Assembly: GCA_035358035.1 (NCBI GenBank)
Contig: DAOPOS010000003.1
Coordinates: 34,513 to 98,512 of the forward strand
Length of the DNA stretch: 64,000 bases
Direction of reading: 5' to 3'
Source: Syntrophales bacterium
Lineage (GTDB): Bacteria; Desulfobacterota; Syntrophia; Syntrophales; UBA2251
Part shown: positions 33,933-58,300 of the stretch, piece after piece
Layout of the letters: the number at the start of each line of letters is the position of its first letter
Numbering within the stretch: the first letter of the stretch is position 1
Position numbers and translations under genes: made by a program
The notes under the pieces: model-generated
Told to the model about the DNA's origin: nothing
Database searches by the model: none
The model's input: the letters and a program-made list of their open reading frames with translations, nothing else

Positions 33933-34103
33933 GCCCTGCTCCTTGAAGCCGCCTGCCGCGGCGACCGGAACGACCGATGGGTCGTTCCGGCCCGTCGTTC
34001 CGCCCGGGACATCGCCCCCCGCAGGGGCGCACGGGCGTTGTTTCGGGATCGAAACCTGTCCGTCGCGCCACGGGACAACGCGTCCCGAAGAGGTTTGCCG
34101 CTT

Positions 34104-35126
34104 TTAAAGAATCATGTACTCGTGGAGCATCTCTCCAGAGACGCGGTCCTTCGCGCCGTCGATCTCGATGTCCATCGTAAAGTCCGCGAGGAACCGGTAG
34201 TACCACTGGTCCCAGTCCACGGTCTTGGGAAGCTGCATCAATTCCACAAGGCGCTTCGTCGCGATGTCGAGCGTCATCTTCACGCCGAGGTTGTCCGTCG
34301 TGAGCACGAGGTGCTTTGCGTATTCCTGACCGGTCTTGGGCTCCTTTTCGAGGTCGCTCAGTTCCGTGTGCATAATGTTCGTCGACAGGACGATCTCGCG
34401 CCCCTTCGCAATCAGGAGCGGGGCAAACATGGGTCCGCTCGGGTCCCGCGGGAAGACCCAGCCGTAGTCCAGGCAGTAATCGCCGCTGTGGAGTCTGCCC
34501 CAGTACCACTTGGAGCAGACCTCGTGCATCGGGAAGTTTCCCCAGTTGTGATCGTGATACGCGTTGCCGCGGACGGCGATGGTTTCGTCCTTAATGTAGA
34601 GTTCTCCCTCCACCTCCGCGTACGGCACCGGGACCACCCACCCCGCGACCCGGGCTTTTTCCTCGTCGCGGTAGTTGAAGCCCGTTCCCAGCTTCCAGCC
34701 GGGGACGACATTCTTCAGGGTCAGGTGCGCCCCGACCTTTTTGATCATGATGTACATCTCGTAGGTGCCGTTCCCCCGGTCCTTGAGCCAGCTCTCGCCC
34801 ATGCGGACGTCGCACCAGTCCGCCCCCGCGTAGGCCTCCTCGGGCTTGCACAGGTCATAGCGCGCCGTCTGCGTTCCGTCCGGCTTGTAGATCATGAGCT
34901 GGATGGAGGGGACGATGGGCTTGAGGAACATGTTCATGTAGTGGAAGGTGAACACCATGTGATAGCCGTTGTCGAAGGAGCAGTCGATGTACCACCACTC
35001 GTAATAATCGTCGCTCTTGTAGATGTGGTTCCCGTCGTCGCGGCTCTGATAGTTTGCGGGATTGCGCTCCGCGCCGGGAACACCGTTGAACGACGCCAGA
35101 TAGTTTCTTTTTTCCTTCTCTTCCAT
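34104..35126 (-). CDS. CrtC/AttH-like lipocalin-fold protein (carotenoid 1,2-hydratase family-like)
   Basis: YEWWYIDC...GNAYHDHNWG...WYWGR motifs recalled from CrtC/AttH-type proteins. Assigned from memory only. Confidence 0.45.
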   Translation of the reverse strand: MEEKEKRNYLASFNGVPGAERNPANYQSRDDGNHIYKSDDYYEWWYIDCSFDNGYHMVFTFHYMNMFLKPIVPSIQLMIYKPDGTQTARYDLCKPEEAYAGADWCDVRMGESWLKDRGNGTYEMYIMIKKVGAHLTLKNVVPGWKLGTGFNYRDEEKARVAGWVVPVPYAEVEGELYIKDETIAVRGNAYHDHNWGNFPMHEVCSKWYWGRLHSGDYCLDYGWVFPRDPSGPMFAPLLIAKGREIVLSTNIMHTELSDLEKEPKTGQEYAKHLVLTTDNLGVKMTLDIATKRLVELMQLPKTVDWDQWYYRFLADFTMDIEIDGAKDRVSGEMLHEYMIL

Positions 35127-35377
35127 GAATGCCTCCTATCAATGATTTTTTGATCGTCTTTCCGGCCGAAGGGCGCCGCAGGGGCGTGGATGCCGTCCTG
35201 CCGCCCGGGAGAAGCCCGCGCACGCATCGATCTGCATCTGCGGCGGGGAATTGGTGTCGGCGATTTGGTCGCTCTATATCATTATCGACCGGACCTTCAA
35301 ACAAAATTTTGATGTCGTTCATGATTTATTCATTCATTTCGATCAGTTGACCGTCCGGAGGGGACGAGCGAATGATC

Positions 35378-35406
35378 TTGACATGGCAGGCCCTTTCGTC
35401 TATGAA
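35378..35406 (+). promoter_or_regulatory. candidate promoter for the acyl-CoA ligase gene
   Basis: TTGACA (35378-35383), 17-nt spacer, TATGAA (35401-35406), inside a relatively AT-rich 440-bp divergent intergenic region. Confidence 0.35.
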
Positions 35407-35566
35407 ATCGCAGCGATCGACCAATCAGTCAACATCGCTCCCGGAAGCCACGGGACACACTGGCGGCATTCGAAGGGTCGGCACCAGCCGTGCGGGGCGG
35501 AGTGGAATTCGGCCCGGGCCGTATTCGGACAATACGTCAAACCATCAAACAAAGGGGATGAATCAC

Positions 35567-37108
35567 ATGAACATGGCATCGTATCTGGTCGAGGCAATCG
35601 AGAAGTTCGGAGAATATGAACAGTTCATCTACATCGCGAACGACGTGCGAACGACCCTGAAGAACACGGAGATCGACCGGCGGGCGCGCGCCCTGGCAAC
35701 GGGTCTGCAGGAGGCCGGCGTGAAGAAGGGCGACATCGTGGGCGTCATGGTCAGCAACATCCTGGAGATCCCGGAGCTCATGAACGGCATCATGCGCATG
35801 GGCGCCACGTACCTGCCCATCATCTTCATGCTGACCCCCAAGGAAATCCGCTACATCCTGGAGGACTCCCAGGCCCGGATCCTCATCACGGAAAAGAACA
35901 TGTGGCCGAAGATGAAGGAGGCCCTCGAAGGAAATGCCTTCGTGAAGCAGATCGTCGTCATCGGCGCCGGTCCGGGCGACGACCTGCCCGAGAAATTCAT
36001 CCCGTACGAGGACTTCGTCGCCAATGACGGGGCCCTGGGCGACGTCCGGGACCTGTCGCCCGACGATCTGGGCATCCTGATGTACACCTCCGGCTCCACG
36101 GGCTTTCCCAAGGGCGTCATGCTCTCCCACGGGAACCTCATCAACAACATGCTGCAGGGGTTCAAGGTATGGCCCTACGAAAATCGCAAGGAGGTGTCTT
36201 ACGCCTGTGTTCCCATGAACCACATCTACGGCTGTCTGGGGTTTCACGAGGCCTGCTACTTCGGCGGGAAGATGGTCCTCGTTCCCCCGTTCGACCCGGT
36301 CAAGGTCCTCGAGCACATGACGGAGTTCAAGGTCACCGTGACGGGTCTGGTGCCGACCATGATCATCCTGATGATGATGGTGTTCGATCCCGCCAAGCAC
36401 AACCTCAAGTCCATGAAATACTGCGTCAGCGCGGGCGCGCCGCTGGCGGAAGAGACCCTGCTCAAGGCCCAGGAGATGTTCGGCATCAGGATCCTGCACG
36501 GCTATGGCTGCACGGAGGCGGGGCCGACCATCGCCCGCCAGCCCCGGGAAGGGGCGTTCAAGCCGGGCTCCGTCGGACCGGCGCTCCCCGGCCTGGAACT
36601 GAAACTCGTCAACGATGCGGGGATGGCGGTTCCCCAGGGAGAGACCGGGGAGATCCTGGTCAAGGGCCCCGGCGTCATGAAGGGATACTGGAACAAACCG
36701 ATCGAGACGGCGGAGACGCTTCGCGACGGGTGGCTGCACACGGGCGACCTGGGACGCCTGGACGGGGACGGCGAACTCTTCATCGTCGGCCGGAAGAAGG
36801 ACCTGATCATCAAGGGCGGCGAGAACATCGACCCCGGCGTTTCGGAAAACATTCTGGCGAAGCACCCGGCGGTCATGATGGTGGCGACCGTCAGCATTCC
36901 CGACGCCAAGTACGGGGAGGAGGTCGGGGCGGCGGTTGTCCTGAAACCGGGGCAGCAGGCCACCGAAGAGGTCCTGCTGACCTACGCCAGGGAACACCTG
37001 CACCCGTTCGTCACACCGAAAAAGATCTTCTTCATGCCCTCCTTCCCCATGACGGGAACGGGCAAGATCCTCAAGCGCGAGATCAGGGAAATGGTCAAGA
37101 AAATGTAG
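35567..37108 (+). CDS. AMP-dependent acyl-CoA synthetase/ligase
   Basis: AMP-binding motif LMYTSGSTGFPKGVMLSH; ...GYGCTEAG...; TGDLGRLDGDGELFIVGRKKDLI; C-terminal GKILKRE. The ATG at 35567 lies 9 nt after AAAGGGG. Confidence 0.85.
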   Translation: MNMASYLVEAIEKFGEYEQFIYIANDVRTTLKNTEIDRRARALATGLQEAGVKKGDIVGVMVSNILEIPELMNGIMRMGATYLPIIFMLTPKEIRYILEDSQARILITEKNMWPKMKEALEGNAFVKQIVVIGAGPGDDLPEKFIPYEDFVANDGALGDVRDLSPDDLGILMYTSGSTGFPKGVMLSHGNLINNMLQGFKVWPYENRKEVSYACVPMNHIYGCLGFHEACYFGGKMVLVPPFDPVKVLEHMTEFKVTVTGLVPTMIILMMMVFDPAKHNLKSMKYCVSAGAPLAEETLLKAQEMFGIRILHGYGCTEAGPTIARQPREGAFKPGSVGPALPGLELKLVNDAGMAVPQGETGEILVKGPGVMKGYWNKPIETAETLRDGWLHTGDLGRLDGDGELFIVGRKKDLIIKGGENIDPGVSENILAKHPAVMMVATVSIPDAKYGEEVGAAVVLKPGQQATEEVLLTYAREHLHPFVTPKKIFFMPSFPMTGTGKILKREIREMVKKM

Positions 37109-37183
37109 CCCCGCCGCCGGGCCCCGCGTAACCGCCGCTCCGGGCGGGGGGAGTAACGGGCGGCGCGGCGATCCCGGAAACGG

Positions 37184-38692
37184 TCACTGGAAGAGGTTGG
37201 GTCCCCCGTCCCCGGGCGTGACCACGCCCCGGTAGCCGATGAACTCTTCCTCTTCCATGCGGCCCGCCAGACCGGAGCCGCGGGGCGCGGTCGCCAAGCA
37301 GCGCTCTCCGGAGTCCAGCCGGGCGACGATGACGGGCCAGGGGACCCCGTCGGGCCGGTCGTGGAGGACCGTGTAGGTCTCCACGGTGGCGGGCCCATCC
37401 GGCTTGAGACAGAACGGCGGGGGTTCCAGGGCGTCGAGCCGTTCCTGGACGGGGTTCCGCCGCGGACGCCTCCACGCCTTCGCGGGTTCACGCCCGCTGT
37501 AGATCCCCACCGCGTATTTCGTCAGGAAATAGCCCACCCCCGTCACCAGGCCCGTCTCCTCCGGATGCCGGCGCAGCCGCTCGACGGCATGCGCGATGGC
37601 GTGCATCGTATAGTTGTTCCCGGCCCCGCCGAAGTAGGACAGGCCGCCGGTGATCGTCAGGGGGGGCAGGTCGTGAATGTCCAGGCCGATCTCCCGGGCG
37701 GCGATGATCGTGGCGCACGGAAAACAGCTGTAGAGGTCCAGGAAATCGATGTCCGCCATCGTCAGGCCGGCGGCCTCCAGGGAGGCCTCGACGGTGAAAC
37801 GGATGAGCGGCGAGGCGTGATAGCAGAGCCTCTCGGAGATGTACCACTTGTCCGCGGCCTCCGCGCCGCCGTGGAGATAGACCCATTTCTCGCGGGGGAT
37901 GCCGAGACTGCGCGCGGTTTCCGTATCGGTGACGAGCACGGCCGCGGCCTGGTTCACGGCCAGCACCGGATTCATGAACTTCGTGTAGGGAAAATTGAAG
38001 AGGGGATTCCCCGCGGTGGGTTCCGTGATGTCGTCCATCTGCTTGCCGCGGTTGAACCAGGCCAGGGGGTTGCCGGCCGCAACCGCCGCCATGTCCAGGA
38101 AGTAGGCGGTCATGTACGCCCGGTGCTCCGCCAGACTCATGCCCAGCGCCTGGCGGAGGGCGTTTTCGAAAAGCGGATAGATATGGGAGGCGCGGTCCGC
38201 CCCGTGCAGAATTTCGTGGTGGGATTCGCCGTAGCGCACGTCCCCCAGGATCCCGTCATCGTCGCGCATCCGCGCGAAGAGTTTCTCGAAGTTCATGAAC
38301 TGCCAGACCTTCCGGTCCCGGTAGAGGGCCTCGGCGCCCGCCAGGAGCGCCACCCTGCACTCGCCGGCCATGATCCGGTCCGCCGCCCGGTTCACGAGCA
38401 GCTGGGGATTGTTTCCCCCCATGGACGTCTCTTCGCGGAAGGCGGGCGAGATCCCCGCCCGGGCGCAGATTCCGGGGAGGGGGCTTTCCCGGAACTCCGT
38501 CATCATGTTGACGACGGAAAGCGTGTCGATGCGGCCGCGAATCTCCGGCCGCCCCGTGTCCTGGATGCAGGCGTCGATCGCCCGCACGGCCAGATCGACG
38601 GCGGAAACGCTGTCCCCGACGATCTTTTCACGGTGCGTGATCTGTCCCGCGCCGACGAGAACGGGATGGTTCATGACCTTGGATGCACTCAT
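37184..38692 (-). CDS. thiolase-like protein fused to a C-terminal OB-fold (DUF35-like) domain
   Basis: The ATG at 38692 overlaps the upstream stop (ATGA). A thiolase-like body (...LLAGAEAL..., ...DLYSCFPCATIIA..., GGLSYFGGAGNNY) is followed by about 110 aa, PDGPATVETYTVLHDRPDGVPWPVIVARLDSGERCLA. The 835-aa ORF in the track is a read-through artefact. Confidence 0.75.
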   Translation of the reverse strand: MSASKVMNHPVLVGAGQITHREKIVGDSVSAVDLAVRAIDACIQDTGRPEIRGRIDTLSVVNMMTEFRESPLPGICARAGISPAFREETSMGGNNPQLLVNRAADRIMAGECRVALLAGAEALYRDRKVWQFMNFEKLFARMRDDDGILGDVRYGESHHEILHGADRASHIYPLFENALRQALGMSLAEHRAYMTAYFLDMAAVAAGNPLAWFNRGKQMDDITEPTAGNPLFNFPYTKFMNPVLAVNQAAAVLVTDTETARSLGIPREKWVYLHGGAEAADKWYISERLCYHASPLIRFTVEASLEAAGLTMADIDFLDLYSCFPCATIIAAREIGLDIHDLPPLTITGGLSYFGGAGNNYTMHAIAHAVERLRRHPEETGLVTGVGYFLTKYAVGIYSGREPAKAWRRPRRNPVQERLDALEPPPFCLKPDGPATVETYTVLHDRPDGVPWPVIVARLDSGERCLATAPRGSGLAGRMEEEEFIGYRGVVTPGDGGPNLFQ

Positions 38693-40161
38693 CTGTCTGT
38701 GGATTCCTCCTTTAGGGGATCGGCCCGTCTCCCGGTCGGGGCCGGCTCGAAATGGCGCCGGGCGGCGATGAAATCGGGCAGGTGTTTCGCCATGTGCCAG
38801 AGGCTGTGGCGGTGCTCCCAGAGGCGGCTCCGGAAGCGGCGTCGCCAGGCGGGATCGGTGTAGAAGCGCTTGACGTGCGCGTTGTAGAGCTGGTCGAGGC
38901 GTTCGCGGGAGGCGATGCCCTTCGGCACGAAGACGAAGTTCAGGCAGTTCATCTGCCGCCAGTCCTCGTCGAACCGTCCTTCGTCCCGGATCGTCGCCCA
39001 GAGCGGCGCGCCCGGAAACGGGGTGAACTTCGTCATGTTCATGTCGTCGAGACCCAGGGCGAGGACGAAGTCGCTCGTCCGGCGGATGGAGGCCTCCGTC
39101 TCGCCCGGCAGGCCCATCATGAAGAGCCCCTTGGCCCTCAGGCCCGCCGCCCGGATCATCGCCACGGTCTCGCGGACCTCCTCCAGGGTCACGCCCGCCT
39201 TGTGGCGCGCCAGCATCTCGGGGTCGGCGGACTCGATCCCGAGCGAAACCATCAGGGCCCCCGCCGCCTTCAGCATCGCCAGGAGCTCCGGGTCCGTCTG
39301 GCCGACGCGCACGGCGCAGTTGAACTGCATCCCCAGCGGATTCTGCATGAGTTTTTCGCACAGCGCCGTGATGCGGGGGCGATTCGCGGTGAAGAGGTCG
39401 TCGTAGATGTTGACGTGGCGCACCTCGAAGCGCGTGCGCAGGTGCTTGAGGTGGTCGTAGATGTAGTCCGCGGAGTTGTAGCGGTAGCCGCGCTTGAAGA
39501 CGGAGCGGTCGCAGTAGGAGCACTGGTAGGGGCAGCCCCGGCTGGTGATCATTGTGGCGCCGGGAAACTGGACGTAGCTGAAGAGCGGCAGGTTGTAGCC
39601 CCTCGGGAAGCCGGCGAGTTTCTCGTAGGCCGGGAACGGAAGAGCGTCCAGATCGGGGAGCGGCGGCCGGGGCGGATTCGCGACGATGCATTCCCCGTCC
39701 CGACGGATCAGCCCCGCGATGCCGGCCGGATCCGCTCCCGAGGCGAGTTCCGCGAGGGTCGCCTCCCCCTCCCCCGGACAGAGATAATCGATGGCGTCGA
39801 AGCGCTCCAGGAGCGTCCCCTCCAGGGCGGAGACGTGCACGCCGCCGAAGACGGCGACGACCCCGGGACGGGCGGCCTTGATCGCCGCCGCCATCTCCCA
39901 GGCATCGAGAAACCCGGAGGTCGTGGCGGAAAAACCGACGAGGTCCGGGTCGCGTTCGAGAACGAGGCGCGCGTTCGCCGCCGTCCCGGAGACGGCATGC
40001 GGACCCAGGCAGTCGTGGACGAAGACCTCGTGGCCTTCGCGGGACAGGTAGGCGGCAATCGAAAGCAGCCCCAGCGGGGCCATCCGGTTGGCCGTCGCGG
40101 TGATGTCCTTTTCCCCCGGCACCCAGTTGGAGCCCGCCGGGTGGACCAGAACGATGCGCAT
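38689..40161 (-). CDS. B12-binding-domain radical SAM enzyme (class B)
   Basis: ATG at 40161 after GGAAGGAAGGGG. The N-terminal MRIVLVHPAG...LGLLSIAAYL...VGFSATTS is cobalamin-binding-like. Radical-SAM cluster motif SRGCPYQCSYCD. Confidence 0.85.
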   Translation of the reverse strand: MRIVLVHPAGSNWVPGEKDITATANRMAPLGLLSIAAYLSREGHEVFVHDCLGPHAVSGTAANARLVLERDPDLVGFSATTSGFLDAWEMAAAIKAARPGVVAVFGGVHVSALEGTLLERFDAIDYLCPGEGEATLAELASGADPAGIAGLIRRDGECIVANPPRPPLPDLDALPFPAYEKLAGFPRGYNLPLFSYVQFPGATMITSRGCPYQCSYCDRSVFKRGYRYNSADYIYDHLKHLRTRFEVRHVNIYDDLFTANRPRITALCEKLMQNPLGMQFNCAVRVGQTDPELLAMLKAAGALMVSLGIESADPEMLARHKAGVTLEEVRETVAMIRAAGLRAKGLFMMGLPGETEASIRRTSDFVLALGLDDMNMTKFTPFPGAPLWATIRDEGRFDEDWRQMNCLNFVFVPKGIASRERLDQLYNAHVKRFYTDPAWRRRFRSRLWEHRHSLWHMAKHLPDFIAARRHFEPAPTGRRADPLKEESTDR

Positions 40162-40259
40162 CAATCCCCTTCCTTCCCGCCCGTTAACCTGCCCCTGGAC
40201 ATCGGGGCCCCTCCGCGCGGCGGGCCTTTTCCGGCCCGGTTTCCCCTTCGCCGCGGCCC

Positions 40260-40844
40260 TCAGCCCCCGGCCTTCCCCCGTCTCTCGTCGAGCAGCGCCG
40301 CGACATTCCCCCGGTGGTTCCAGAAAACGAAGAGCGCCGTCGCCGCCGTCCCGGCGATCGGAATCGCCTGGCCGCCGCTCGCCGCGACCGTCGCCCCCCC
40401 GAGGGTCAGGATCATGAAGAAGGAGGCGACAAACGGGATCCGGACGATCCGGTGGACGACGACCCAGACGAGACAGGACAGGGCCGCCCCCCACGGGGCG
40501 ATGAGGACCGTGAAGCCCAGATAGTTGGCGACGCCCTTCCCGCCGCGGAAGCCGTGAAAGCAGGGGAACCGGTTCCCGAGGACGAGGGCGAAGCCGATCC
40601 AGGGAGCCCAGGCGAAGGGCAGCAGCCACAGGGCCAGGGCGGCGAAGCCGACGGCCCGGCCGACGTCGAGCAGGAGGACGACGGCCGCCCAGCCTCGCCC
40701 CGCCTGGCGGAAGACGTTCGTCGTCCCCGCGTTCCCGCTGAACTGCGTCCGGGGATCCGCCTTCCCCAGGAGATGAAGGACGATGATCGCGAAATTGACC
40801 GAGGCGGCGAGATACGCCAGCACAAACAGCGCGGCAACGCCCAT
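40260..40844 (-). CDS. plsY: acyl-phosphate:glycerol-3-phosphate acyltransferase
   Basis: SGNAGTTNVFR...FHGFRGGKGVA... are typical PlsY motifs. Multi-pass membrane protein. Confidence 0.9.
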   Translation of the reverse strand: MGVAALFVLAYLAASVNFAIIVLHLLGKADPRTQFSGNAGTTNVFRQAGRGWAAVVLLLDVGRAVGFAALALWLLPFAWAPWIGFALVLGNRFPCFHGFRGGKGVANYLGFTVLIAPWGAALSCLVWVVVHRIVRIPFVASFFMILTLGGATVAASGGQAIPIAGTAATALFVFWNHRGNVAALLDERRGKAGG

Positions 40845-40845
40845 C

Positions 40846-41766
40846 CTACACCCCTTCCCTCACCCAGGCCGGCGGGATCCGCCTTCCGCCCGAGATGTCC
40901 CGCATCCTCAGGCCCCGGATCACCTCCACGGCCCGTCGTTTTTCGTCGTCGATCTGGAAATCGAAGCGCAGGGTCGCCCCTTCGTCCGCAAGGGGGGAAA
41001 CCCGGCAGACGTAGCGCCCGCCGGACGACGTCGGGAAGAGAATCTCCCGGCGGTCGAAGCCGACGGGAAAGGCCACGACGCCCCGGTAGCGCTGTCCCCA
41101 GGCGCAGGCCACGTGCATGGCGGCGTCGAAGGGAAAGGGCGACCCCAGGGGACCGTCGGCCTCCGGAAAACGTCCGCCGGAAAGGGCTGCCGCCGCCCCG
41201 GCCGACGTGAGACACACCTCGCCCGTCACGTTCCGCCAGGCGGGTCCGAACGGGACCAGTTCCTCGTAGAGGCGGGCGCCGGGGACGACAAAGGGCGCCG
41301 TGTCTTGCCGCGTCGTGTCCTCATCATCCCGCCTCCCTTCACCGGAGGCGCCCCGGACCGCCCTCTCCCGGGCGGTTGTCGTCTCCTCTCCGGTGTCCGT
41401 CCCCGCCCCGCGCACGGCGGGAAAATGCACGCATGCATGCTCGATGCGGCGGGTGCAGGCCGTCCGCCGTCCGGTGCGTCGCGTCGTCAGACGGGAACGG
41501 CACCCCCCGCCGGGCAGCGGCTCGACCTCGTGGACCGCCTCGATGCGCGCCGCCGCCTCGTCCACGATGAGGAGGTGGGAGAACTGCGCCCCCTCCTGAC
41601 GGCGGGCGTCGTACGCCGGCGGCAGCGTCCGGGCCAGGATCTGCAGGGCCTCCGCGGCGGGCAGGACGCAGCGTCCGTCCGCACGGTGCTCGCGCAGATA
41701 CGCGGGAACGGGGATGACGAGGGGGATTTGCCCGGGATGCTTCACGGCTGGGGGAACGTCTTCCAT
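40846..41766 (-). CDS. stand-alone PKS-type (double hot-dog) dehydratase-like protein
   Basis: ATG at 41766. HRADGRCVLP matches HxxxGxxxxP, and DAAMH matches DxxxQ/H in the second half. A charged low-complexity linker of about 45 aa separates the halves. Confidence 0.6.
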   Translation of the reverse strand: MEDVPPAVKHPGQIPLVIPVPAYLREHRADGRCVLPAAEALQILARTLPPAYDARRQEGAQFSHLLIVDEAAARIEAVHEVEPLPGGGCRSRLTTRRTGRRTACTRRIEHACVHFPAVRGAGTDTGEETTTARERAVRGASGEGRRDDEDTTRQDTAPFVVPGARLYEELVPFGPAWRNVTGEVCLTSAGAAAALSGGRFPEADGPLGSPFPFDAAMHVACAWGQRYRGVVAFPVGFDRREILFPTSSGGRYVCRVSPLADEGATLRFDFQIDDEKRRAVEVIRGLRMRDISGGRRIPPAWVREGV

Positions 41767-42224
41767 AGATGAACCGTTTTGGGGTCGACGGCCACGGGCA
41801 CGCCCCGGGCGTTCAGGGCGCAGTGGCGGGTGAATCCCCGGCAGACCTCGACGCCCGACTCCGCATGCAGAATGATGTAGTCGAAGCGGAGGCGCACCCG
41901 CTCCAGTTCTCCGGGACGGGTATGGATCCACATGGGGTCGTCGTAATGGAGCGCCTGATAGAACTGGACGCCCATCTCGATGATGGGGTAGACGTAGCCC
42001 CCGGCCTCGATCTCCCGGTAGGGATAGGCGGCGTCCCGCATCAGGGACGTGCGTCCCAGTTCGAAGTATCTCAGGTAATTCGCGTGATACACGACCGTGG
42101 AGCGGTCCGTATCGGCGTAGAGGGTCCGGTGGGAACAGCGATGCCAGACGAGGCCGGTTGCGGCGTCGCGGACATACCGTCCCTCATCGGACAGGGATTC
42201 CGGCCGGAAGGGTTTCGGCTTCAT
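41742..42224 (-). CDS. 4HBT/YbgC-type acyl thioesterase
   Basis: ...RTLYADTDRSTVVYHANYLRYFELGR... (hot-dog thioesterase N-terminal Asp motif). ATGA overlap with the upstream KS stop. Confidence 0.8.
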   Translation of the reverse strand: MKPKPFRPESLSDEGRYVRDAATGLVWHRCSHRTLYADTDRSTVVYHANYLRYFELGRTSLMRDAAYPYREIEAGGYVYPIIEMGVQFYQALHYDDPMWIHTRPGELERVRLRFDYIILHAESGVEVCRGFTRHCALNARGVPVAVDPKTVHLWKTFPQP

Positions 42225-43489
42225 CCCGCACCTCCGAAGACGATGCAGCAGTTCGTCCCCCCGAAGCCGAAGGCGTTCGCCAGGGCGGTTGCGTAACGCT
42301 GGCGGCGGGCGCGATCGGGGACGCAGTCGATGTCGGCGAAGCGCGGGTCGGGGCGGTGGTTGATCGTCGGCAGGATCACCCCCCGCTGCATGCCTTCGAT
42401 CGTCAGGGCGTCCTCGATGGCCGCCGCGGCCCCCAACGTATGGCCGAGCTGCGATTTGTTTGAGGACAGGGGGATCCGCTCGAGGCCCTTCCCGAAGACC
42501 GTCCGGAGGCAGGCGATCTCCGTCAGGTCGCCCTTCTGTGTGGAGGTCCCGTGCGTATTGATGTACCCGATATCCGCCGGCGCGAGCCCCGCGTCGGCAA
42601 TGGCCTCGCGGATGGCCCGCACGATCGTTTTGGCGTTGGGATTGGTGAAGTGGTACGCGTCGGAGGTCCAGCCGACGCCCAGGACCTCCGCCCGGGCGGT
42701 CAGGCCGAACCGGGCGAGCGCCTCCTCGGCCGCGAGGACGAGCACGCCCGCGCCTTCGGACAGGACGAAGCCGCGCCGGTCCGCGCTGAAGGGGCGCGAG
42801 GCCTGCGCGGGGTCGTCATACGCCCGGTCCCCCGGGAGGACCTTGATCGTGGCGTTCATGTTGGTGAAGCCGTGGATGATCTCCGGCAGGATGGGGGTGT
42901 CCACCCCGCCCGCGAGCGCGAAATCGCAGTCCCCGTCGCGGATCATCCGCGCCCCGATGCCGACCGCGTGGTTGCCGGAGGCACAGGCCCCCTGCGGCGA
43001 GAAGACGGGTCCGGTGAAGCCCAGGAGCATCCCCGCCTTGCCCGAGGGGAGGTTGGCGCAGAGGTTGGGCAGGAGGTAGGGGCTCACCTTGAGCGGCCCC
43101 CGCTCCTGGAAATTCAGCATGGCGGTCCGGAAGGCGTCGGTGCCGTTGATTGCCGAGCCGATGAGGCAGGCCGTGCGCGGCGCGGTCTCCTCGTTCATCT
43201 CCAGTCCGGCGTGGTCCAGGGCCTCCCGGCAGACCGCCATGGTCAGGAGAACGAAGGCGGCGTTCCAGTTGTAGACCTCCTTGGCATCGGCAAACTCGAG
43301 GCCCGCGGGGTCCCAGCCGGGGATCTCCCCGACCACGTCGCAGACGGACTGGACCTTGCAGCGGGTAACCTTCCGGAAGCCCGCCTCGCCCTTGGCGGCG
43401 CGCGCCCACGTCTCGGCGAAGGTCCGCCCCAGGGGGGTGGCCGCCCCGTAGCCGATCACGAAGACCCGTCTGTTCCGTGGCGCTTTCAT
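42221..43489 (-). CDS. beta-ketoacyl synthase (KAS I/II type)
   Basis: Active-site contexts GACASGN, SDAYH, NTHGTSTQ, NKSQLGH. Confidence 0.9.
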   Translation of the reverse strand: MKAPRNRRVFVIGYGAATPLGRTFAETWARAAKGEAGFRKVTRCKVQSVCDVVGEIPGWDPAGLEFADAKEVYNWNAAFVLLTMAVCREALDHAGLEMNEETAPRTACLIGSAINGTDAFRTAMLNFQERGPLKVSPYLLPNLCANLPSGKAGMLLGFTGPVFSPQGACASGNHAVGIGARMIRDGDCDFALAGGVDTPILPEIIHGFTNMNATIKVLPGDRAYDDPAQASRPFSADRRGFVLSEGAGVLVLAAEEALARFGLTARAEVLGVGWTSDAYHFTNPNAKTIVRAIREAIADAGLAPADIGYINTHGTSTQKGDLTEIACLRTVFGKGLERIPLSSNKSQLGHTLGAAAAIEDALTIEGMQRGVILPTINHRPDPRFADIDCVPDRARRQRYATALANAFGFGGTNCCIVFGGAG

Positions 43490-43501
43490 GCCCGCCTCAT
43501 A

Positions 43502-44752
43502 TCAGGTGACGCGACGAAATACAAGGCACGCATTGCAGCCGCCGAAGCCGAAGGCGTTTTTCAGGACGACGGTCTGGTCCAGGCGCCGTGCGCCTTCGGC
43601 CACGCAGTCGAGCGGGATTCCCGGGTCCGGGTGGTGGTTGATCGTGGGCAGGAGCACGCCCCGGCGCAGACCCTCGATCGCCAGCACGGACTCGACGGCG
43701 CTCGTCGCCCCCATGGCGTGGCCGAGCTGCGATTTGTTGGCCGAGACGGGCGGGACCCGGTCCCCGAAGACCTCCCTCAGGGCGTCGGCCTCGACCTGGT
43801 CCCCGATCTTCGTCGAGGCGGCGTGGGCGTTGACGGCGTCGATCGCGGCGGGAGGGAGGCCGGCGTGCCGGAGGCCCTCGGCGATGCAGCGGGCAACCTG
43901 GGCGCGGTTGGGCATCACGGCGTGGTAGGCGTCGGCCGTCATGGCCCAGCCGGCCAGTTCCGTTTCGAAGTTAAGGCCGTGCGCCCGGGCGAACGCCCGG
44001 GAGGCGATCACGATGCAGGCGGCGCCCTCCGAGACGACGAAGCCGCGCCGCCCCAGGGAGAACGGTGCGCTCGCCGCTTCGGGCGGAACGGGCGCCTCCC
44101 CCCCCTTCGGCCGGTAGGCGCCGTTCATCGTGGCGAAACCGGCCACGATGGACTCGACCAGGGGAAAATCCACGGCGCCGCAGAGGGCGATGTCGGCCAT
44201 ACCCTGGGCGATGAACATCGCCCCCAGGACGAGGGAACTGCTCCCCGTGGCGCATGCCGTGATGATCGAGGCGATCGGTCCGGTCGCCCCGGTGAAGATC
44301 GCCACCTTGCCGCCCACCATGTTGATGCAGGCGTTGGGGTTCATGAAGGGCTGGGGGAGTTTCCCGGAGGCCGTCAGCGCCCGGTCCGCCGCGACGAGCG
44401 CGTCCAGGCCGCCGATCGCGGAGCTGAAGGTGACGGCGGTCCGCGGGGCCGTCTCCGGCGTGATCTCCACACCGGCGCGCTTCAGGGCGCGGTGGACGAC
44501 GAGCAGGGCGTGGGGGAAGACGGGCGAGGTCCAGTGGGCCATCTCGCGGGGGCGGAGGAAGGGATAGGGGGCGACGTCCATCTCCGGGACCTGGCCGGCG
44601 ATCCGGACGGGAAACCCGTCGCGCGGGGGAAAGCGGGTCAGCGGGCCGATACCGCTCTCCCCGGCCGCGGCCCGCGCCCACTGCCGATCGAGGTCCGTAC
44701 CAAGCGGCGAAACGCAGTCATATCCGAGAATCACGGGTCGCAAGTCAGTCAT
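43502..44752 (-). CDS. beta-ketoacyl synthase paralog (divergent)
   Basis: TACATGS, ADAYH, NAHAASTK, NKSQLGH. The Cys-His-His triad appears to be retained. Confidence 0.85.
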   Translation of the reverse strand: MTDLRPVILGYDCVSPLGTDLDRQWARAAAGESGIGPLTRFPPRDGFPVRIAGQVPEMDVAPYPFLRPREMAHWTSPVFPHALLVVHRALKRAGVEITPETAPRTAVTFSSAIGGLDALVAADRALTASGKLPQPFMNPNACINMVGGKVAIFTGATGPIASIITACATGSSSLVLGAMFIAQGMADIALCGAVDFPLVESIVAGFATMNGAYRPKGGEAPVPPEAASAPFSLGRRGFVVSEGAACIVIASRAFARAHGLNFETELAGWAMTADAYHAVMPNRAQVARCIAEGLRHAGLPPAAIDAVNAHAASTKIGDQVEADALREVFGDRVPPVSANKSQLGHAMGATSAVESVLAIEGLRRGVLLPTINHHPDPGIPLDCVAEGARRLDQTVVLKNAFGFGGCNACLVFRRVT

Positions 44753-44818
44753 GGCCGTTCTCGTGGTTGAGCGGGACCGCGCCCCCGCAGCGGAGGCCCC
44801 CGCGCATCGCCAGGGCGC

Positions 44819-45817
44819 TCACCAGGGCAGGAAGCGGTAGAGTTTGGCGAACATCTCGTAGACCTCGATCCAGTTCTGCAGGTCTTTGGCCGAGCGCAGA
44901 TGGGCCCGCTTGTTCACCATCACCCAGCTCATGTGGGCGGCGCCGTCCTTACAGGTCGCGCAGTCGCGGGTGGCCGACGTGCAGCAGCGGTGCATCGTCT
45001 CCAGGTCCGCCGCCCAGCGGATGAAGCGGATCAGGCGCTTCGGACGGGGATCGCGGGTGTCGAGCGGTTCCGTCACGGAGGGGCATTCCATCCACCCGAA
45101 GGGGCGCCCGAGCATCCGGCCGGTCGTGATGATCTCGTGGTAGTACCGGCAGGAGACGACGGTCCGCGGGTAGGCGTCGAGCATGGCGTCCATCTCGGCG
45201 CGGAGGTCGGCGAGCTGGGAGGGGGTCCAGGAGAACCCCTCCACGCCCTCGTCGTTCGACAACAGCTGCATGTGGACCTTGAGCCCCACGTCGGCGATGC
45301 GCCGGATGACGCGCTCCGTGCGGCCGATCTGCCGGGGGGTGATCGTGTAGAGGTAGTAGGTGTACGGGTCGCCCGCGTAGTTCCGGCTGGAGACGGCGAA
45401 GACGTCCCTCCCGCGGAGGAGCTTCTCGTCCTCCTCGTCCCCCCAGAGCGAGATCCCGATCATCATCTCGGGGAAACGGTCGCGGGGCGCCTTGATGAGG
45501 CCGTTCGTGGCGAGGTACGTGGGAATCCGCCGGTAGAAGGCCTCGACGCGGTCGAGGTGGAGGGTCGGTTCGCCCCCGATGAGGATGGCGAGATTCACCC
45601 CGCGCGCCTGCTCCCGGGCCACGAAGGCCTCCCATTTCGCGAGGTCGGTCTCTTCGGGCGCGGCCCGGTGCTCGCCGGAGGAGAAGAAGAAGCACCCCTT
45701 GCAGCGCAGGTTGCAGCGGTTCGTCACGTCGTAGATCGAACTGCGGATGTTCAGGCGGGAGATCGCCCGGTAGCGCGCGGCCCAGGGCTCATCGAGAAGC
45801 GTGCTGACGGTGTGCAT
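44819..45817 (-). CDS. radical SAM enzyme (paralog 2)
   Basis: IYDVTNRCNLRCKGCFF; GGEPTL; C-terminal Cys motif HRCCTSATRDCATCKDGAA. Confidence 0.85.
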   Translation of the reverse strand: MHTVSTLLDEPWAARYRAISRLNIRSSIYDVTNRCNLRCKGCFFFSSGEHRAAPEETDLAKWEAFVAREQARGVNLAILIGGEPTLHLDRVEAFYRRIPTYLATNGLIKAPRDRFPEMMIGISLWGDEEDEKLLRGRDVFAVSSRNYAGDPYTYYLYTITPRQIGRTERVIRRIADVGLKVHMQLLSNDEGVEGFSWTPSQLADLRAEMDAMLDAYPRTVVSCRYYHEIITTGRMLGRPFGWMECPSVTEPLDTRDPRPKRLIRFIRWAADLETMHRCCTSATRDCATCKDGAAHMSWVMVNKRAHLRSAKDLQNWIEVYEMFAKLYRFLPW

Positions 45818-45820
45818 GGC

Positions 45821-47011
45821 TTACGGTTTCCTCGCGGGGAGGGGATCCGGCGGGGCGATCATCTCCTGGCAGAGGGTCTCCCCCTTTTCGTAGCCCATCA
45901 CCCAGACGGCGAGATAGGTGTCGACGTAATCGAGCCAGGCGCGAAAGGTCCCTGGATCCGTGGCGTGCCGGTAGAGCCGCGCGGTGACCACCGCGCTCCC
46001 CGCCGCATAGTGGCGGCAGTCGTCGCAGTCCGTGTCGGGCACGCAGCAGGCAACGTCGCGGTCCCAGGTCAGGTCGGCCCGGAACTGGCGGAAGGAGCGT
46101 CCGAGGCCGAGGGCGGTGGAGGGGTTCCGCCGGGGATAGGCGCAGCGGTACAGGTCGTGGAGACCCTGGACCTCGGTGTGGGCGACGGCGTTGTAGGGCG
46201 AAAAGAGGACGTGGCCGGGGTGACGGTCCATCATCCCGGACATGACGTCCCGCGTCCGGGCGAGCGAGGCGGCGTCGTGGCGGAGGGGGCCCGTGTAGCC
46301 GACCGGCGCGGAGAACACGTTGAAGGTCGCCCTGCAACCGGCCGCGGCCAGGGTGTCCATGACGCCCGCGCACTCCCCGACGTTTTCCCGCGTGAAGGTA
46401 TAGACGAAGACGGCGCGCGGGTCGCCCGCGTAGTTGTCGATCTGGCGGCCGAGGAGGCCCTTCGCCTTGCGGACGCGCAGGCTCGTGGCGTCGTTGCCCC
46501 AGACGGAGATGTGGATCCTGTAGCCTACGGCGGGATCGATGCGGCGGACCCCGTTGGTCGCGATGCAGCCCAGGGGCGCCTCGGCGAAGCAGACCGCGAG
46601 CCGCTCGGGAACGAGCGAGGGCTCGGCCCCCGCCAGCACGACATAGGTGATGCCGCGCGCCTTTTCCCGGCGCATCAGGTCGCGCCACGCCTCCGGGTCG
46701 TCGTTCTCGCGGGCGAACTGCTTTTCGCCCTCGTAATAGTAGCAGCCGTCGCAACGGAGGTTGCAGCGGTTCGTCATGTCGTACGTGGATTCGCGCAGGA
46801 AAAAGTATTTTCGCACCTTTTCCCAGCGCTCCCGGACCTCCGGCGGGGCGAGCAGCTCGGAAAACTTCCACCGGCGCGGCGCAACCGCCACCGGGGCGGA
46901 AAGGACGTCCGCGGCGGCCCGGCGCTCACGGTCCGTCGCCCCCCCCGCCTTCGGGTCCCTGTGATCGTCGCGGCGCCGCACGCGGGCACCGCACGTCTTG
47001 GCCTCGCTCAT
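45821..47011 (-). CDS. radical SAM enzyme (paralog 1, with an Arg-rich N-terminal extension)
   Basis: The ATG at 47011 overlaps the ACP stop (ATGA). TYDMTNRCNLRCDGCYY; GAEPSL; C-terminal VACCVPDTDCDDCRHYAA. Confidence 0.8.
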   Translation of the reverse strand: MSEAKTCGARVRRRDDHRDPKAGGATDRERRAAADVLSAPVAVAPRRWKFSELLAPPEVRERWEKVRKYFFLRESTYDMTNRCNLRCDGCYYYEGEKQFARENDDPEAWRDLMRREKARGITYVVLAGAEPSLVPERLAVCFAEAPLGCIATNGVRRIDPAVGYRIHISVWGNDATSLRVRKAKGLLGRQIDNYAGDPRAVFVYTFTRENVGECAGVMDTLAAAGCRATFNVFSAPVGYTGPLRHDAASLARTRDVMSGMMDRHPGHVLFSPYNAVAHTEVQGLHDLYRCAYPRRNPSTALGLGRSFRQFRADLTWDRDVACCVPDTDCDDCRHYAAGSAVVTARLYRHATDPGTFRAWLDYVDTYLAVWVMGYEKGETLCQEMIAPPDPLPARKP

Positions 47012-47274
47012 GAATGCAATTTCTTTTGCAGGTATTCGGCGATCAACCGGAGGGTCTTCAACGTCGGATAGTCGTCCTCGTCGATGAAGACGCCGTACTC
47101 GTCCTGCAACACCAGGGCCACCGTCGCCAGATCCATGCTGTCCACGCCGAGCTCGTCCACCAGGTCCATATCGGGATCGAACGTCTCCGGCGTCACGTCT
47201 TCCAGCTTCAGCTCCTCGATCATGATCGTGGCAATCCGGAGGATCAGCGCCTGGGTGTCCATCCGCTCCGGCAT
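47008..47274 (-). CDS. acyl carrier protein
   Basis: ATG at 47274 after GGGAGG. Phosphopantetheine-attachment motif LGVDSMDLATV. 88 aa. Confidence 0.85.
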   Translation of the reverse strand: MPERMDTQALILRIATIMIEELKLEDVTPETFDPDMDLVDELGVDSMDLATVALVLQDEYGVFIDEDDYPTLKTLRLIAEYLQKKLHS

Positions 47275-47602
47275 GGTGCAACCTCCCTCACACAAAAAGT
47301 CCGCCCCGCTTCGGGTCACGGCCGTCCGAAAAGTGCCTTTTTGCAGGACAATCCCTCCATTTGTCAAGAGATTTATGGATCGTCCCATCCGGTTTTTTAA
47401 CACATCCGGCCGGGGGAAACAACGTTTTCATCGGGTCGTCCCTCCCGTCCCATCGCCCTGTGGGGAATGCCTGCGCGGCCTCCGGGGGTTGCGGCGATGC
47501 CGGACGGGATATTGCTGTTGATTCCTGTTTCCGGGACGTGTATGGTCCGACCGATATCGAAACAGCACCCCTTCCCCCGGGAGAGGGCATCCGGAAGGAA
47601 CT

Positions 47603-48340
47603 ATGAAAATCCAAGTCATCGGTTGCGGGGACGCGTTCGGAAGCGGGGGCCGGTTTAATACCTGCTTCCTTTTAGAAGACGGCGGGCAGCGCATCCTCGT
47701 CGATTGCGGCGCAAGTTCCCTTGTGGCGTTGAAGAAATTCGGCGTGGACCCCGATTCCATCGGGACGGTGGTTCTCACCCATCTTCACGGCGATCATTTT
47801 GGCGGCCTGATTTTCCTGCTGCGCGAGGCGACGCTTTTCAAACGCCGGACGAAGGCCCTGGTTATCGGCGGACCCGAAGGAACCGCCGAAAGGCTGGAGA
47901 ACGCCATGGAAGCCTTCTTTCCCGGCGGGTGGATCGCAAACCCGGCCTTCGGTCTCACCATCATGGAGTATCGCTCGGAAGAGCCCGTGTCCATCGGTCC
48001 GCTGCAGGTGAAACCGTATTCGATGCGTCATGCCTGCGGGGCGCCGCCCTACGCCCTGAGGATCCGTTTCGCCGGCAAGACGATCACCTACACCGGCGAC
48101 ACGGAATGGGTGGATTCCCTCGTTGATGCCTGGAAAGAAAGCGATCTCTTGATCTGCGAGTCGTACGTCTACTCGACGCCCGTCAACAAGCACTTAAGCT
48201 ATGAAACCGTCGCCGCCCGGCTGTCTGAGATCAACCCCAAACGGGTCCTCCTGACCCACCTCAACCAGGACATGCTCGATCGCCTGGCCGAATCGAAATA
48301 CCCGATAGCCCGGGACGGAATGATCATCGATCTTCACTGA
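47603..48340 (+). CDS. metallo-beta-lactamase-fold hydrolase
   Basis: THLHGDHFGG (HxHxDH motif) and ...TGDTEW.... Confidence 0.8.
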   Translation: MKIQVIGCGDAFGSGGRFNTCFLLEDGGQRILVDCGASSLVALKKFGVDPDSIGTVVLTHLHGDHFGGLIFLLREATLFKRRTKALVIGGPEGTAERLENAMEAFFPGGWIANPAFGLTIMEYRSEEPVSIGPLQVKPYSMRHACGAPPYALRIRFAGKTITYTGDTEWVDSLVDAWKESDLLICESYVYSTPVNKHLSYETVAARLSEINPKRVLLTHLNQDMLDRLAESKYPIARDGMIIDLH

Positions 48341-48453
48341 CGGAAGAGGGTACGATAGAAGGAAAATCCTTGACTTTTCGTCAAGGCTCTATAAACTACC
48401 CCCAAGCCGTAAGGCTGGTGGCCCTTTACCCAAGGTTTAGGACCGTGGCTGCG

Positions 48454-48483
48454 CCTCAGTCGCCGTTAAGACTGGGGCTTTTT
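48454..48483 (+). terminator. hairpin plus T-tract at the left island edge
   Basis: CCTCAGTC (48454-48461) / GACTGGGG (48470-48477) with one G-U pair, followed by CTTTTT. The loop contains the stop codon of the minus-strand 48466..48765 ORF. Confidence 0.45.
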
Positions 48484-48765
48484 CGTTTCCAGTAAAGTGC
48501 TTTCCCGCCGGATCTTTGCCAAGTATGCTTTATCTGCCGGGAAAGCGGTGATGAACTCAAGCACATTCTGCCCTTTTCGCTCTTCCAACACGACCACATA
48601 CCGTTCCTCGACAACAATCAAAACCCGCCGCTTCTTCATCCGGCCACGGCTGTCCCTGCGGTACTCAAGCCTCCGTTCAATGCTGCCCTTCGATACGGTC
48701 AAAACCTCCTTGACCCAGAGGATACAGCGCGCCCGCTTTTTTAGAAAAGGAACCATCATGAACAC
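48466..48765 (-). CDS. hypothetical 99-aa protein (possibly a small RelE/BrnT-like toxin fold; unverified)
   Basis: ORF only. ...RRVLIVVEERYVVVLEERKGQNVLEFITAFPADKAYLAKIRRE... No confident family assignment. Confidence 0.35.
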   Translation of the reverse strand: MFMMVPFLKKRARCILWVKEVLTVSKGSIERRLEYRRDSRGRMKKRRVLIVVEERYVVVLEERKGQNVLEFITAFPADKAYLAKIRRESTLLETKKPQS

Positions 48766-48815
48766 CGCTTATGAAGCGATGGGCTGTGCTTTTGGAAAAG
48801 GCGTGTGCAGGTGGG

Positions 48816-48935
48816 TCAGTTTTCAGCTACCACAATCATTCTTCTGTGAATCCCCTGACCGAGGGCCTCGCGAGTGCAGATGATCCTGTCTTGCTGGCGG
48901 ATGATCTCGATTGCCTTGCTTCTTGTTGTATCCAT
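48816..48935 (-). pseudogene. 39-codon remnant resembling the N-terminal winged-helix of AbiEi_4-type antitoxins
   Basis: Translated by hand: MDTTRSKAIEIIRQQDRIICTREALGQGIHRRMIVVAEN*. The pattern A.E.I....II.T.EAL..GIH matches remembered AbiEi N-termini. It is truncated after about 39 aa. Confidence 0.3.
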
Positions 48936-48950
48936 GGGCAGGCACAGCAT

Positions 48951-48979
48951 AAAAAGGCGGCAACATATTGAGTTTGCCG
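48951..48979 (-). terminator. weak hairpin plus T-tract after the AIPR gene
   Basis: CGGCAA (48958-48963) / TTGCCG (48974-48979) with a 10-nt loop. On the minus strand it is followed by CCTTTTT. Confidence 0.3.
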
Positions 48980-49085
48980 ACTTTTTATGACCTAGTCATG
49001 CCTAGCTTGTCGTCCGAGGGGGGGGTAAAGAGGGGCTACAATCCCTTAAATTTTAAAAGGTGTTAAAATATCTATTGTTATGTCA

Positions 49086-51167: not shown

Positions 51168-51184
51168 CTGAATCCTCCGTTTGT

Positions 51185-56247: not shown

Positions 56248-56334
56248 GCTCCGAAGCCCTTTCTAGGGTATATTGATAAGAACATCTGCCAGGTATCAGC
56301 TCCAGAATGTAGTTCAACCCACTGGATACTTATA

Positions 56335-58299: not shown

Positions 58300-58300
58300 C

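Follow-up and report, generated by a model that had tools for sequence, protein, structure and literature searches.

We have analysed a 64,000-nucleotide (nt) stretch of a Syntrophales bacterium genome (assembly GCA_035358035.1, contig DAOPOS010000003.1, positions 34,513 to 98,512), hereafter the window, in which positions 37184–47274 hold ten tightly packed genes, all on the minus strand. An earlier reading, made from the letters of the sequence without database searches (the sequence-only reading), had described these genes as a ten-gene translationally coupled operon with gaps of at most 98 nt, and the list of open reading frames together with an inspection of each junction agrees with this description. 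ATGA start/stop overlaps are found at 47008–47011, 42221–42224 and 38689–38692, the thioesterase and dehydratase genes share 25 nt (41742–41766), and the remaining intergenic gaps are of 3, 66, 12, 1 and 98 nt, the last one being exact when the start of the ninth gene is corrected to the ATG at 40161, which is preceded by the ribosome-binding site GGAAGGAAGGGG. A recognisable Shine-Dalgarno sequence is present upstream of most of the operon genes. Domains were assigned by Pfam and NCBIfam profile scans of all ten proteins, as follows:

47008..47274, minus strand: acyl carrier protein (ACP), 88 amino acids (aa), first gene of the operon; PF00550, E 5.7e-10; ribosome-binding site GAGGGAGG upstream
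45821..47011, minus strand: radical S-adenosylmethionine (radical-SAM) enzyme rSAM1, 396 aa; CNLRCDGC and C-terminal CCVPDTDCDDC; PF04055
44819..45817, minus strand: radical-SAM enzyme rSAM2, 332 aa, paralog of rSAM1; CNLRCKGC and C-terminal CCx6Cx2C; PF04055
43502..44752, minus strand: FabF-like ketosynthase (KS) KS1, 416 aa; ketoacyl-synt N and C domains (Pfam)
42221..43489, minus strand: FabF-like ketosynthase KS2, 422 aa; ketoacyl-synt N and C domains (Pfam)
41742..42224, minus strand: hot-dog thioesterase of YbgC/FadM type, 160 aa; TIGR00051, PF13279, PF03061
40846..41766, minus strand: double hot-dog dehydratase-like protein (DH) of polyketide synthase (PKS) type, 306 aa; PF14765, E 4.9e-6
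40260..40844, minus strand: divergent PlsY-family acyltransferase, 194 aa; PF02660
38689..40161, minus strand: B12-binding radical-SAM enzyme (B12-rSAM), 490 aa, CPYQCSYC; PF02310 and PF04055
37184..38692, minus strand: thiolase-like protein type 1 (TLP1), 502 aa, ATGA-coupled to the B12-rSAM gene; PF18313

These scans bore out all ten domain assignments made from the sequence, the thioesterase being the only operon protein to score above an NCBIfam cut-off. They also agree with the earlier statement that the operon encodes no ketoreductase, enoyl reductase or malonyl transferase, as none was found by Pfam or NCBIfam among the ten proteins. The enzymes of acyl-chain assembly appear intact. In the ACP, the phosphopantetheine serine site (DSMDL) shows a conservation of at least 95% among 73 homologs, and the Cys-His-His residues that had been noticed in both ketosynthases are indeed intact and kept at 95% or more in 56–62 homologs (62 for KS1), along with the gatekeeper FGFGG; KS1 has HAAST instead of HGTST. 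The two ketosynthases share 42% identity and both fall below the TIGR03150 cut-off of 493.75 bits (KS1 321, KS2 375), and they are KS-domain proteins and not housekeeping FabF equivalogs. The closest PDB entries of KS1 are canonical FabF enzymes and neither protein is closer to any other structure; entry 9s5h, which we take to be the amxFabF heterodimer from its name and 2026 date (unverified), matches both of them more weakly than canonical FabF does. The thioesterase scores 74 bits with TIGR00051 (cut-off 68.7) and its Y-x-DTD catalytic motif is conserved in 55 homologs. For the DH, the match to PF14765 is weak but significant (26.6 bits, cut-off 23.7) and a PDB sequence search gave no match. 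The HxxxGxxxxP and DxxxH motifs reported earlier are nevertheless present (H27xxxGxxxxP, D213xxxH217), and in 46 homologs, whose overall identity is only 31–57%, H27, P36, D213 and H217 each reach at least 90% conservation; having the domain match and both motifs, the protein can be assigned to the PKS-type dehydratases. A DH-like protein fused to a C-terminal 4'-phosphopantetheinyl transferase domain is encoded in several related loci (for example L083, 19240–20775, and L027, 17686–19218), a fusion that ties the DH to the ACP.

The twin enzymes rSAM1 and rSAM2 are paralogs, with 29% identity over the whole length (E 2e-32), and score 33.9 and 33.2 bits with PF04055 (cut-off 29.5), the match of rSAM1 covering only its N-terminal part; the first 45 residues or so of rSAM1 are variable among orthologs. 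Alignments of both paralog families evidence that the cysteines of CxxxCxxC and those of the C-terminal CCx6Cx2C are invariant, and the latter suggest the presence of one auxiliary Fe-S cluster in each enzyme. There is no match to SPASM in Pfam, though these four invariant C-terminal cysteines occur in both proteins. No NCBIfam model is matched above its cut-off and neither family has a dedicated Pfam or NCBIfam model. From PDB sequence and fold searches, rSAM1 and rSAM2 fall in the MoaA/PqqE/anSME/sactisynthase group, without a close neighbour. In fact, the rSAM1 profile retrieved SkfB (E 8e-9, over the radical-SAM core) and, weakly, GDGT-MAS 7TOL (E 0.0028, generic core only) among PDB sequences, and the rSAM2 model has as nearest Foldseek matches anSME, CteB and PqqE of the SPASM group, at a TM of only about 0.4. 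This AF2 model, built from 54 sequences, has a pLDDT of 69, with low values over both cysteine regions and below 50 in the C-terminal one; an rSAM1 model from 12 sequences (pLDDT 53) was set aside.

Both enzymes are highly conserved. More than 2000 relatives of rSAM1 were found in a collection of 5.8 billion proteins, with orthologs at 70–92% identity and the best 120 at 71–92%, and rSAM2 has 1889 related proteins, of which the 120 orthologs listed are 79–88% identical and almost all exactly 332 aa long. At 50% clustering, the rSAM1 superfamily comprises 415 representatives among 1.84 billion proteins. Such high identity across orders and phyla would reflect unusually strong purifying selection. 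More distant relatives of rSAM1 (32–41% identity) occur in heterogeneous contexts, such as polysaccharide, MBOAT and loci like those for ribosomally synthesised and post-translationally modified peptides, from which no family-wide function can be deduced. One of these contexts, found in loci L085 and L086 (10001–11255), has a single rSAM1-like gene (40% identity) directly adjoined by an ACP gene. The surrounding polysaccharide locus encodes sulfotransferases, WcbI and glycosyltransferases but no ketosynthases, and insertion sequence elements lie beside it. The pairing of an rSAM1-like gene with an ACP gene in an unrelated locus suggests that the family acts on substrates bound to carrier proteins.

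We have scanned one genome per GTDB species (185,579 species genomes) and relatives of rSAM1 were found in at least 594 of them. The best 80 carriers belong to Syntrophales, Syntrophus, Smithella, Desulfobacterales, other Thermodesulfobacteriota and Spirochaetota metagenome-assembled genomes (MAGs), and the closest among the genome matches listed is a Syntrophales MAG with about 90% DNA identity. Synteny was analysed by tblastn of the window proteins against 81 related loci, 50 of which extend at least 8.5 kb beyond rSAM1 and were used for downstream counts, and 64 of which have at least 4.5 kb upstream and were used for upstream counts. Downstream, rSAM2 and KS1 are present in 50 of 50 loci, KS2 and the thioesterase in 49, the DH in 48, PlsY in at least 35 (a lower bound, as loci are cut), and a window-type B12-rSAM and a PlsC-type acyltransferase in 15 each, and the ACP is present upstream in 63 of 64. 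The order ACP-rSAM1-rSAM2-KS1-KS2-thioesterase-DH is kept in 48–50 of the 50 loci, and therefore the gene arrangement is not a matter of chance and recurs outside this genome. The commonest architecture continues with PlsY, with or without B12-rSAM, and corresponds to the first eight or nine genes of the window. The ten-gene unit of the sequence-only reading was in this respect overstated, the conserved unit being of seven to nine genes (ACP to PlsY, with or without B12-rSAM) and the thiolase-like gene being lineage-specific. As judged from the sequences, a module so exceptionally well conserved in different phyla is likely to work as a set of closely interacting proteins under strong selection, and it has probably spread horizontally.

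A mosaic pattern was noted in locus L014 (Syntrophaceae UBA2251), which has 93.7% DNA identity to the window from KS1 to B12-rSAM and 78% across rSAM1-rSAM2, with the break at the rSAM2/KS1 junction (window ~44780). Locus L003, a second contig of the same MAG, is 93–97% identical over the segment formed by the gene of a metallo-beta-lactamase (MBL)-fold protein, ACP, rSAM1 and rSAM2. The break in L014 corresponds either to recombination within the operon or to a chimeric MAG contig.

The PlsY homolog can be aligned from end to end with Aquifex PlsY (structure 5XJ5) and scores 119.6 bits with PF02660, but its score with TIGR00023 (101.8 bits) is below the cut-off of 137.2. It has in common with the canonical PlsX/PlsY/PlsC pathway the PF02660 domain and most PlsY motif positions, keeping SGNAGxTN (SGNxGxTN), GGKGVA and HxxN. 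Unlike canonical PlsY, it has GH replaced by GN and K by R, consistently so in all 35 cluster-linked homologs examined, and it lies in a biosynthetic operon without plsX. The protein represents a distinct PlsY subfamily, being a family member and not a clear equivalog. Related clusters that are extended end in PlsC and PlsY, the two acyltransferases of phosphatidic acid synthesis, and the conservation of PlsY along with the recurrent PlsC-type acyltransferase strengthens the reading of the product as a glycerolipid. The B12-rSAM, in turn, has invariant CxxxCxxC cysteines and a clear PF04055 match (90.1 bits, cut-off 29.5). Among NCBIfam models it scores best with HpnJ (175 bits) and BchE (161 bits), in both cases falling well short of the cut-off, and TIGR04072 gives 93.5 bits against a cut-off of 360. 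The nearest PDB entry is AprD4, and TokK and TsrM-type enzymes are also near, a set of likenesses that does not fix the chemistry of the enzyme.

A distinct scenario results from the analysis of the distal end of the operon, beyond which two further features lie:

37107..37123, minus strand: terminator-like stem-loop directly 3' of the last operon gene (consensus scan only)
35372..37108, plus strand: convergent AMP-binding acyl-activating enzyme (AMP-ligase), start uncertain; PF00501 and PF13193

In the scan, terminator-like sites and internal promoters showed no excess over shuffled sequence; a search for riboswitches and other RNAs gave no Rfam match upstream of the operon, and there is no tRNA in the 64-kb window. 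The thiolase-like protein is a TLP1 by its PF18313 match (32.9 bits, cut-off 26.1) and extra C-terminal domain, and it aligns over the full length with M. smegmatis TLP1 4EGV (E 2.4e-70). Its gene is absent from 80 of the 81 related loci, and the AMP-ligase gene is complete beside the cluster only in the window, distant homologs being found near the cluster in L015, L063 and L078. The L014 copies of both genes have internal deletions: in L014 13859–15400 the missing segments match window 37498–38333 (thiolase-like, 836 nt) and 35979–36605 (AMP-ligase, 627 nt), which suggests either decay of accessory genes or assembly collapse. From their distribution, the two genes are a recent lineage-specific appendage, despite the ATGA coupling of the thiolase-like gene to B12-rSAM, and the AMP-ligase is a possible accessory gene outside the conserved core.

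The sequence-only reading had also suggested, without certainty, that clusters of this kind have been discussed as candidates for ladderane or other unusual lipids. [quoted passage not shown] Also, antiSMASH 'ladderane' clusters have been reported in Desulfobacterota and other phyla, with function unknown, and treated as secondary-metabolite clusters (PMC9902471), and a ketosynthase/chain-length-factor (KS/CLF)-like FabF heterodimer of anammox bacteria has one partner, amxFabFmut, with a mutated catalytic triad (preprint 10.64898/2026.05.19.726425). We have compared the window and its relatives with the Kuenenia protein sequences of Javidpour 2016 Table S6 (PMC4790861). Upstream of the module, most relatives have a FabZ/ApeI-like gene (58 of 64 loci), a polysaccharide-deacetylase-like gene similar to Kuste3351 (54 of 64) and a B12-rSAM of TIGR04072/Kuste3342 type (45 of 64), and a phytoene-desaturase-like gene is found in 22 of the 64. 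The upstream B12-rSAM has 34–37% identity to Kuste3342 (E about 1e-85 to 1e-90), and that of L083 reaches 388 bits with TIGR04072 'rSAM_ladder_B12', above the 360 cut-off. A gene for a KS-KS fusion of 727 aa (L083 3182–5365, with equivalents in 21 of the 64 loci) adjoins the phytoene-desaturase-like gene and resembles a covalently fused anammox KS/CLF-like heterodimer.

None of these upstream anammox-like genes, including those for the phytoene-desaturase-like protein and FabZ, was found by tblastn in the 64-kb window, and L002, the closest relative, also lacks FabZ, the deacetylase and the upstream B12-rSAM. In respect to the radical-SAM enzymes, Kuste3343 (a SPASM enzyme) matches rSAM1 and rSAM2 only over 79–101 residues around CxxxCxxC (E 3e-5 to 7e-5), and the B12-rSAM of the window has only 23–24% identity to Kuste3342, Kuste2803 and Kuste3608 (within the first 400 residues for the last two). 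The radical-SAM enzymes of the window are not orthologs of these four Kuenenia proteins. An assignment of the twin enzymes as orthologs of Kuste3342/3343 was rejected, as Kuste3342, a B12-rSAM, finds its match in a gene that the window lacks, and Kuste3343 is a SPASM enzyme; likewise, the idea that L001 is an anammox genome finds no support, its B12-rSAM being only 37% identical to Kuste3342. The window has neither the features of 'Cluster I' (kuste3603-3608), namely a mutated KS partner, a Kuste3608/Kuste2803 B12-rSAM and a phytoene-desaturase-like protein with amxFabZ, nor those of TIGR04072 clusters, namely a B12-rSAM above 360 bits and a Kuste3343-type SPASM partner. The Kuenenia clusters kuste3335-3352 and kuste3603-3608 and the operon share a dedicated ACP, extra FabF paralogs, hot-dog dehydratases, radical-SAM enzymes and an anaerobic host, but the gene lists given for the Kuenenia clusters in PMC2649909 and PMC4790861 include no PlsY, YbgC-type thioesterase or PKS-type DH, and both ketosynthases of the window are catalytically intact, in contrast to the anammox KS/CLF-like pair. 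The suggestion holds for most relatives, in which the module is contiguous with homologs of anammox genes, but not for the window itself. These comparisons of sequence make the module a widespread distinct family, a frequent neighbour of anammox-like genes and not a copy of them.

We consider it somewhat probable that the operon is a self-contained type II FAS/polyketide-like branch whose product is a specialised acyl chain destined for a glycerolipid. In such a pathway, KS1 and KS2 would extend the chain on the dedicated ACP, with malonyl loading, keto-reduction and any enoyl reduction being supplied by housekeeping FAS II and the enoyl intermediates coming from the DH. rSAM1 and rSAM2, probably as a complex, would act on the chain while it is bound to the ACP and functionalise a carbon that is unactivated or allylic, candidate reactions being C-C bond formation or cyclisation, desaturation and other hydrogen abstraction. 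The thioesterase may free or proofread the chain, and the divergent PlsY would esterify the product to glycerol-3-phosphate. The B12-rSAM would modify the chain further, the simplest option being methylation of an unactivated carbon, and the thiolase-like protein and the acyl-AMP ligase would have been appended in this lineage. The rSAM1-like/ACP gene pair found elsewhere, the DH-phosphopantetheinyl transferase fusion and the cluster ends in PlsC and PlsY support the dependence on a carrier protein and the glycerolipid fate. The interpretation of the sequence-only reading, a modified acyl chain destined for membrane glycerolipids, was reasonable and is partly supported, with corrections on the conserved unit, on the thiolase-like add-on and on the distinctness from the anammox set.

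A number of points weigh against the production of a specialised glycerolipid chain. Direct transfer of the chain to glycerol phosphate would face competition from the thioesterase encoded in the same operon. PlsY scores below its cut-off and has the conserved GN and R replacements, and its donor or acceptor may differ; indeed, the usual donor of PlsY is acyl-phosphate, and neither PlsX nor a fatty-acid kinase is present in the operon. Lipid acyltransferases also occur in aryl polyene (Ape) clusters, and an acyltransferase is no proof of a bulk membrane lipid. The mediocre rSAM2 model yields no substrate clue, and the roles of all operon proteins, like the product, are predicted.

The main rival explanation, which we regard as unlikely, is that the product is a specialised low-abundance metabolite anchored to lipid, such as an aryl-polyene-like or polyene protectant or pigment, and not a bulk lipid. 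Without an enoyl reductase, the KS pair and the DH would build a polyene, which the radical-SAM enzymes would tailor and the acyltransferase would anchor. Ape clusters resemble the operon in being built on type II FAS-like enzymes. They comprise an ACP, two ketosynthases acting as a pair, dehydratases of the hot-dog fold and a 4HBT thioesterase, together with lipid acyltransferases for anchoring the product, and the operon echoes this list of parts with its two ketosynthases, its DH, its 4HBT thioesterase and its acyltransferase; it also has no ketoreductase. However, Ape clusters contain a ketoreductase, a KS/CLF pair, ApeI/ApeP dehydratases, and genes for starter activation and export, and to our knowledge they have no radical-SAM enzymes, whereas here both ketosynthases are intact. 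Neither an aryl-starter-activating enzyme nor export genes are found in the window, and Pfam and NCBIfam detect no ketoreductase, ApeI-like, MMPL or LolA-like domain among the ten operon proteins. The extended loci of relatives do carry the ApeI-like Pfam domain, with genes for an ApeI-like FabZ, an LpxL-like acyltransferase and an MMPL-methyltransferase, and the treatment of Desulfobacterota 'ladderane' calls as secondary-metabolite clusters (PMC9902471) is in line with a specialised metabolite. On the other side, the very high conservation and wide spread of the module resemble core physiology more than variable secondary metabolism.

Less probable still is that the operon supplies the membranes of strict anaerobes with ordinary housekeeping fatty acids (unsaturated, hydroxylated or branched) by a route that needs no oxygen, the radical-SAM pair taking the part of an anaerobic desaturase or dehydrogenase and KS1 and KS2 being FabB/FabF-like. 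Every named carrier is from a lineage known mainly in anoxic habitats, and the radical-SAM dehydrogenase anSME is among the nearest folds, though at the weak similarity given above. Anaerobic desaturation by radical-SAM enzymes was in fact proposed for related clusters (PMC2649909). However, the species genomes matched (594, as a lower bound) are too small a share of those scanned for a general solution of anaerobes, and a dedicated ACP, a thioesterase and a second PlsY would be needless for housekeeping fatty acids.

We give little credence to a third possibility, an acyl-derived cofactor or prosthetic group analogous to the precursors of lipoate or biotin. The logic of lipoyl and biotin synthesis, ACP-bound intermediates processed by radical-SAM enzymes with auxiliary clusters, is indeed similar, and the very high enzyme conservation would fit, but the conserved PlsY, the frequent PlsC and the LpxL-like and MMPL proteins of extended loci do not suit cofactor synthesis, and there is no ligase or transferase for attachment to a protein. 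Finally, it is extremely improbable that the product is a ladderane lipid of the anammox kind, or an immediate precursor of one: although the module of relatives is linked to TIGR04072/Kuste3342-like, Kuste3351-like deacetylase, FabZ and phytoene-desaturase-like genes, the window has none of them, its radical-SAM enzymes are non-orthologous to those of Kuenenia and its ketosynthases lack the defect of amxFabFmut (preprint 10.64898/2026.05.19.726425), D. psychrophila has related clusters and no ladderanes were detected in it (PMC2649909), and ladderanes are regarded as limited to anammox Planctomycetota (PMC9902471).

Returning to the specialised glycerolipid chain, we propose more tentatively, and at less than even chances, that rSAM1 and rSAM2 are a new carrier-protein-dependent radical-SAM family that, jointly with the KS pair, DH and PlsY of the operon, installs a feature for which no gene is yet known (a ring, an internal C-C link or an anaerobic desaturation) in a membrane lipid of syntrophic and sulfate-reducing anaerobes. 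Tes/GDGT-MAS and Mss also belong to the radical-SAM enzymes and join unactivated carbons of lipids through C-C bonds, and there is a weak profile match to GDGT-MAS 7TOL and to NF045702, in the generic radical-SAM core only. The substrates of Tes/GDGT-MAS and Mss are, however, complete phospholipids and not ACP-bound chains, and we know of no clustering of their genes with KS and ACP genes. With Jaw5 of the jawsamycin pathway, which is HemN-like, rSAM1 and rSAM2 have no sequence relationship beyond the superfamily, and the jawsamycin synthase is an iterative PKS whereas the window encodes discrete type II enzymes. The concept is shared, as in Jaw4/Jaw5 a radical-SAM cyclopropanase modifies an enoyl intermediate on the carrier protein during chain growth (PMC13459092). 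This 2026 review lists only ladderanes (hypothetical) and jawsamycin as fatty-acyl lipids for which a modification by radical-SAM enzymes has so much as been proposed (PMC13459092). In agreement with the sequence-only reading, which knew of no such pathway, no characterised pathway of matching composition was found in NCBIfam, Pfam, PDB or the literature searched; the literature searches, which covered ladderane-like clusters, PlsY with radical SAM, branched glycerol dialkyl glycerol tetraethers (brGDGT), membrane-spanning lipid genes and TIGR04072, returned no characterised product.

In respect to the genomic surroundings, the window has a GC content of ~65–70%, except for a low-GC block at 48–58 kb. 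A 12.7-kb segment at the promoter side of the operon (47436–60184) is absent in L002, in which 139 nt join the flanks. It contains an MBL-fold hydrolase gene (47603–48340) and a low-GC (~47%) defence block formed by AIPR (49086–51167), DUF4420 (51185–52105), Z1 (52092–54785), HATPase_c_3 (54775–56247) and a Dcm methylase-Vsr fusion (56335–58308), after which comes an AbiEii/AbiEi pair (58301–60006). A gene for a BtrH_N/DUF4872 protein (60591–61601, plus strand) adjoins this island, and in L002 it stands directly upstream of the operon, with 92% identity. Loss of the upstream anammox-like genes through insertion of the island is ruled out, since L002 has neither the island nor those genes. At the other side, just beyond the convergent AMP-ligase, a CrtC-like lipocalin-domain gene (34104–35126, minus strand) abuts the gene of a FadH/old-yellow-enzyme-type flavin oxidoreductase (31995–34103, minus strand); the CrtC-like gene is syntenic in L014.

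The cluster belongs with the radical-SAM-containing FAS II-like lipid clusters of anaerobes, and its radical-SAM families have no curated model. The tailoring of fatty-acyl, non-isoprenoid lipids by radical-SAM enzymes is almost uncharted, and the compact module described here shows extreme conservation and a wide distribution among syntrophs driving the methanogenic turnover of carbon. The glycerol-phosphate acyltransferase at its end implies that lipidomics should reveal the product. Solving the pathway would give a function to two radical-SAM families without a dedicated Pfam or NCBIfam model and could expose a new anaerobic lipid, a possible biomarker. It would also offer a tractable non-anammox entry to the related 'ladderane-type' clusters, in which the chemistry has been a question since 2009. 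If rSAM1 and rSAM2 do constitute a new family, their lipid could be the source of an orphan bacterial lipid of anoxic sediments, and the two enzymes would supply the functional connection, so far missing, with the anammox-type clusters that usually adjoin the module.

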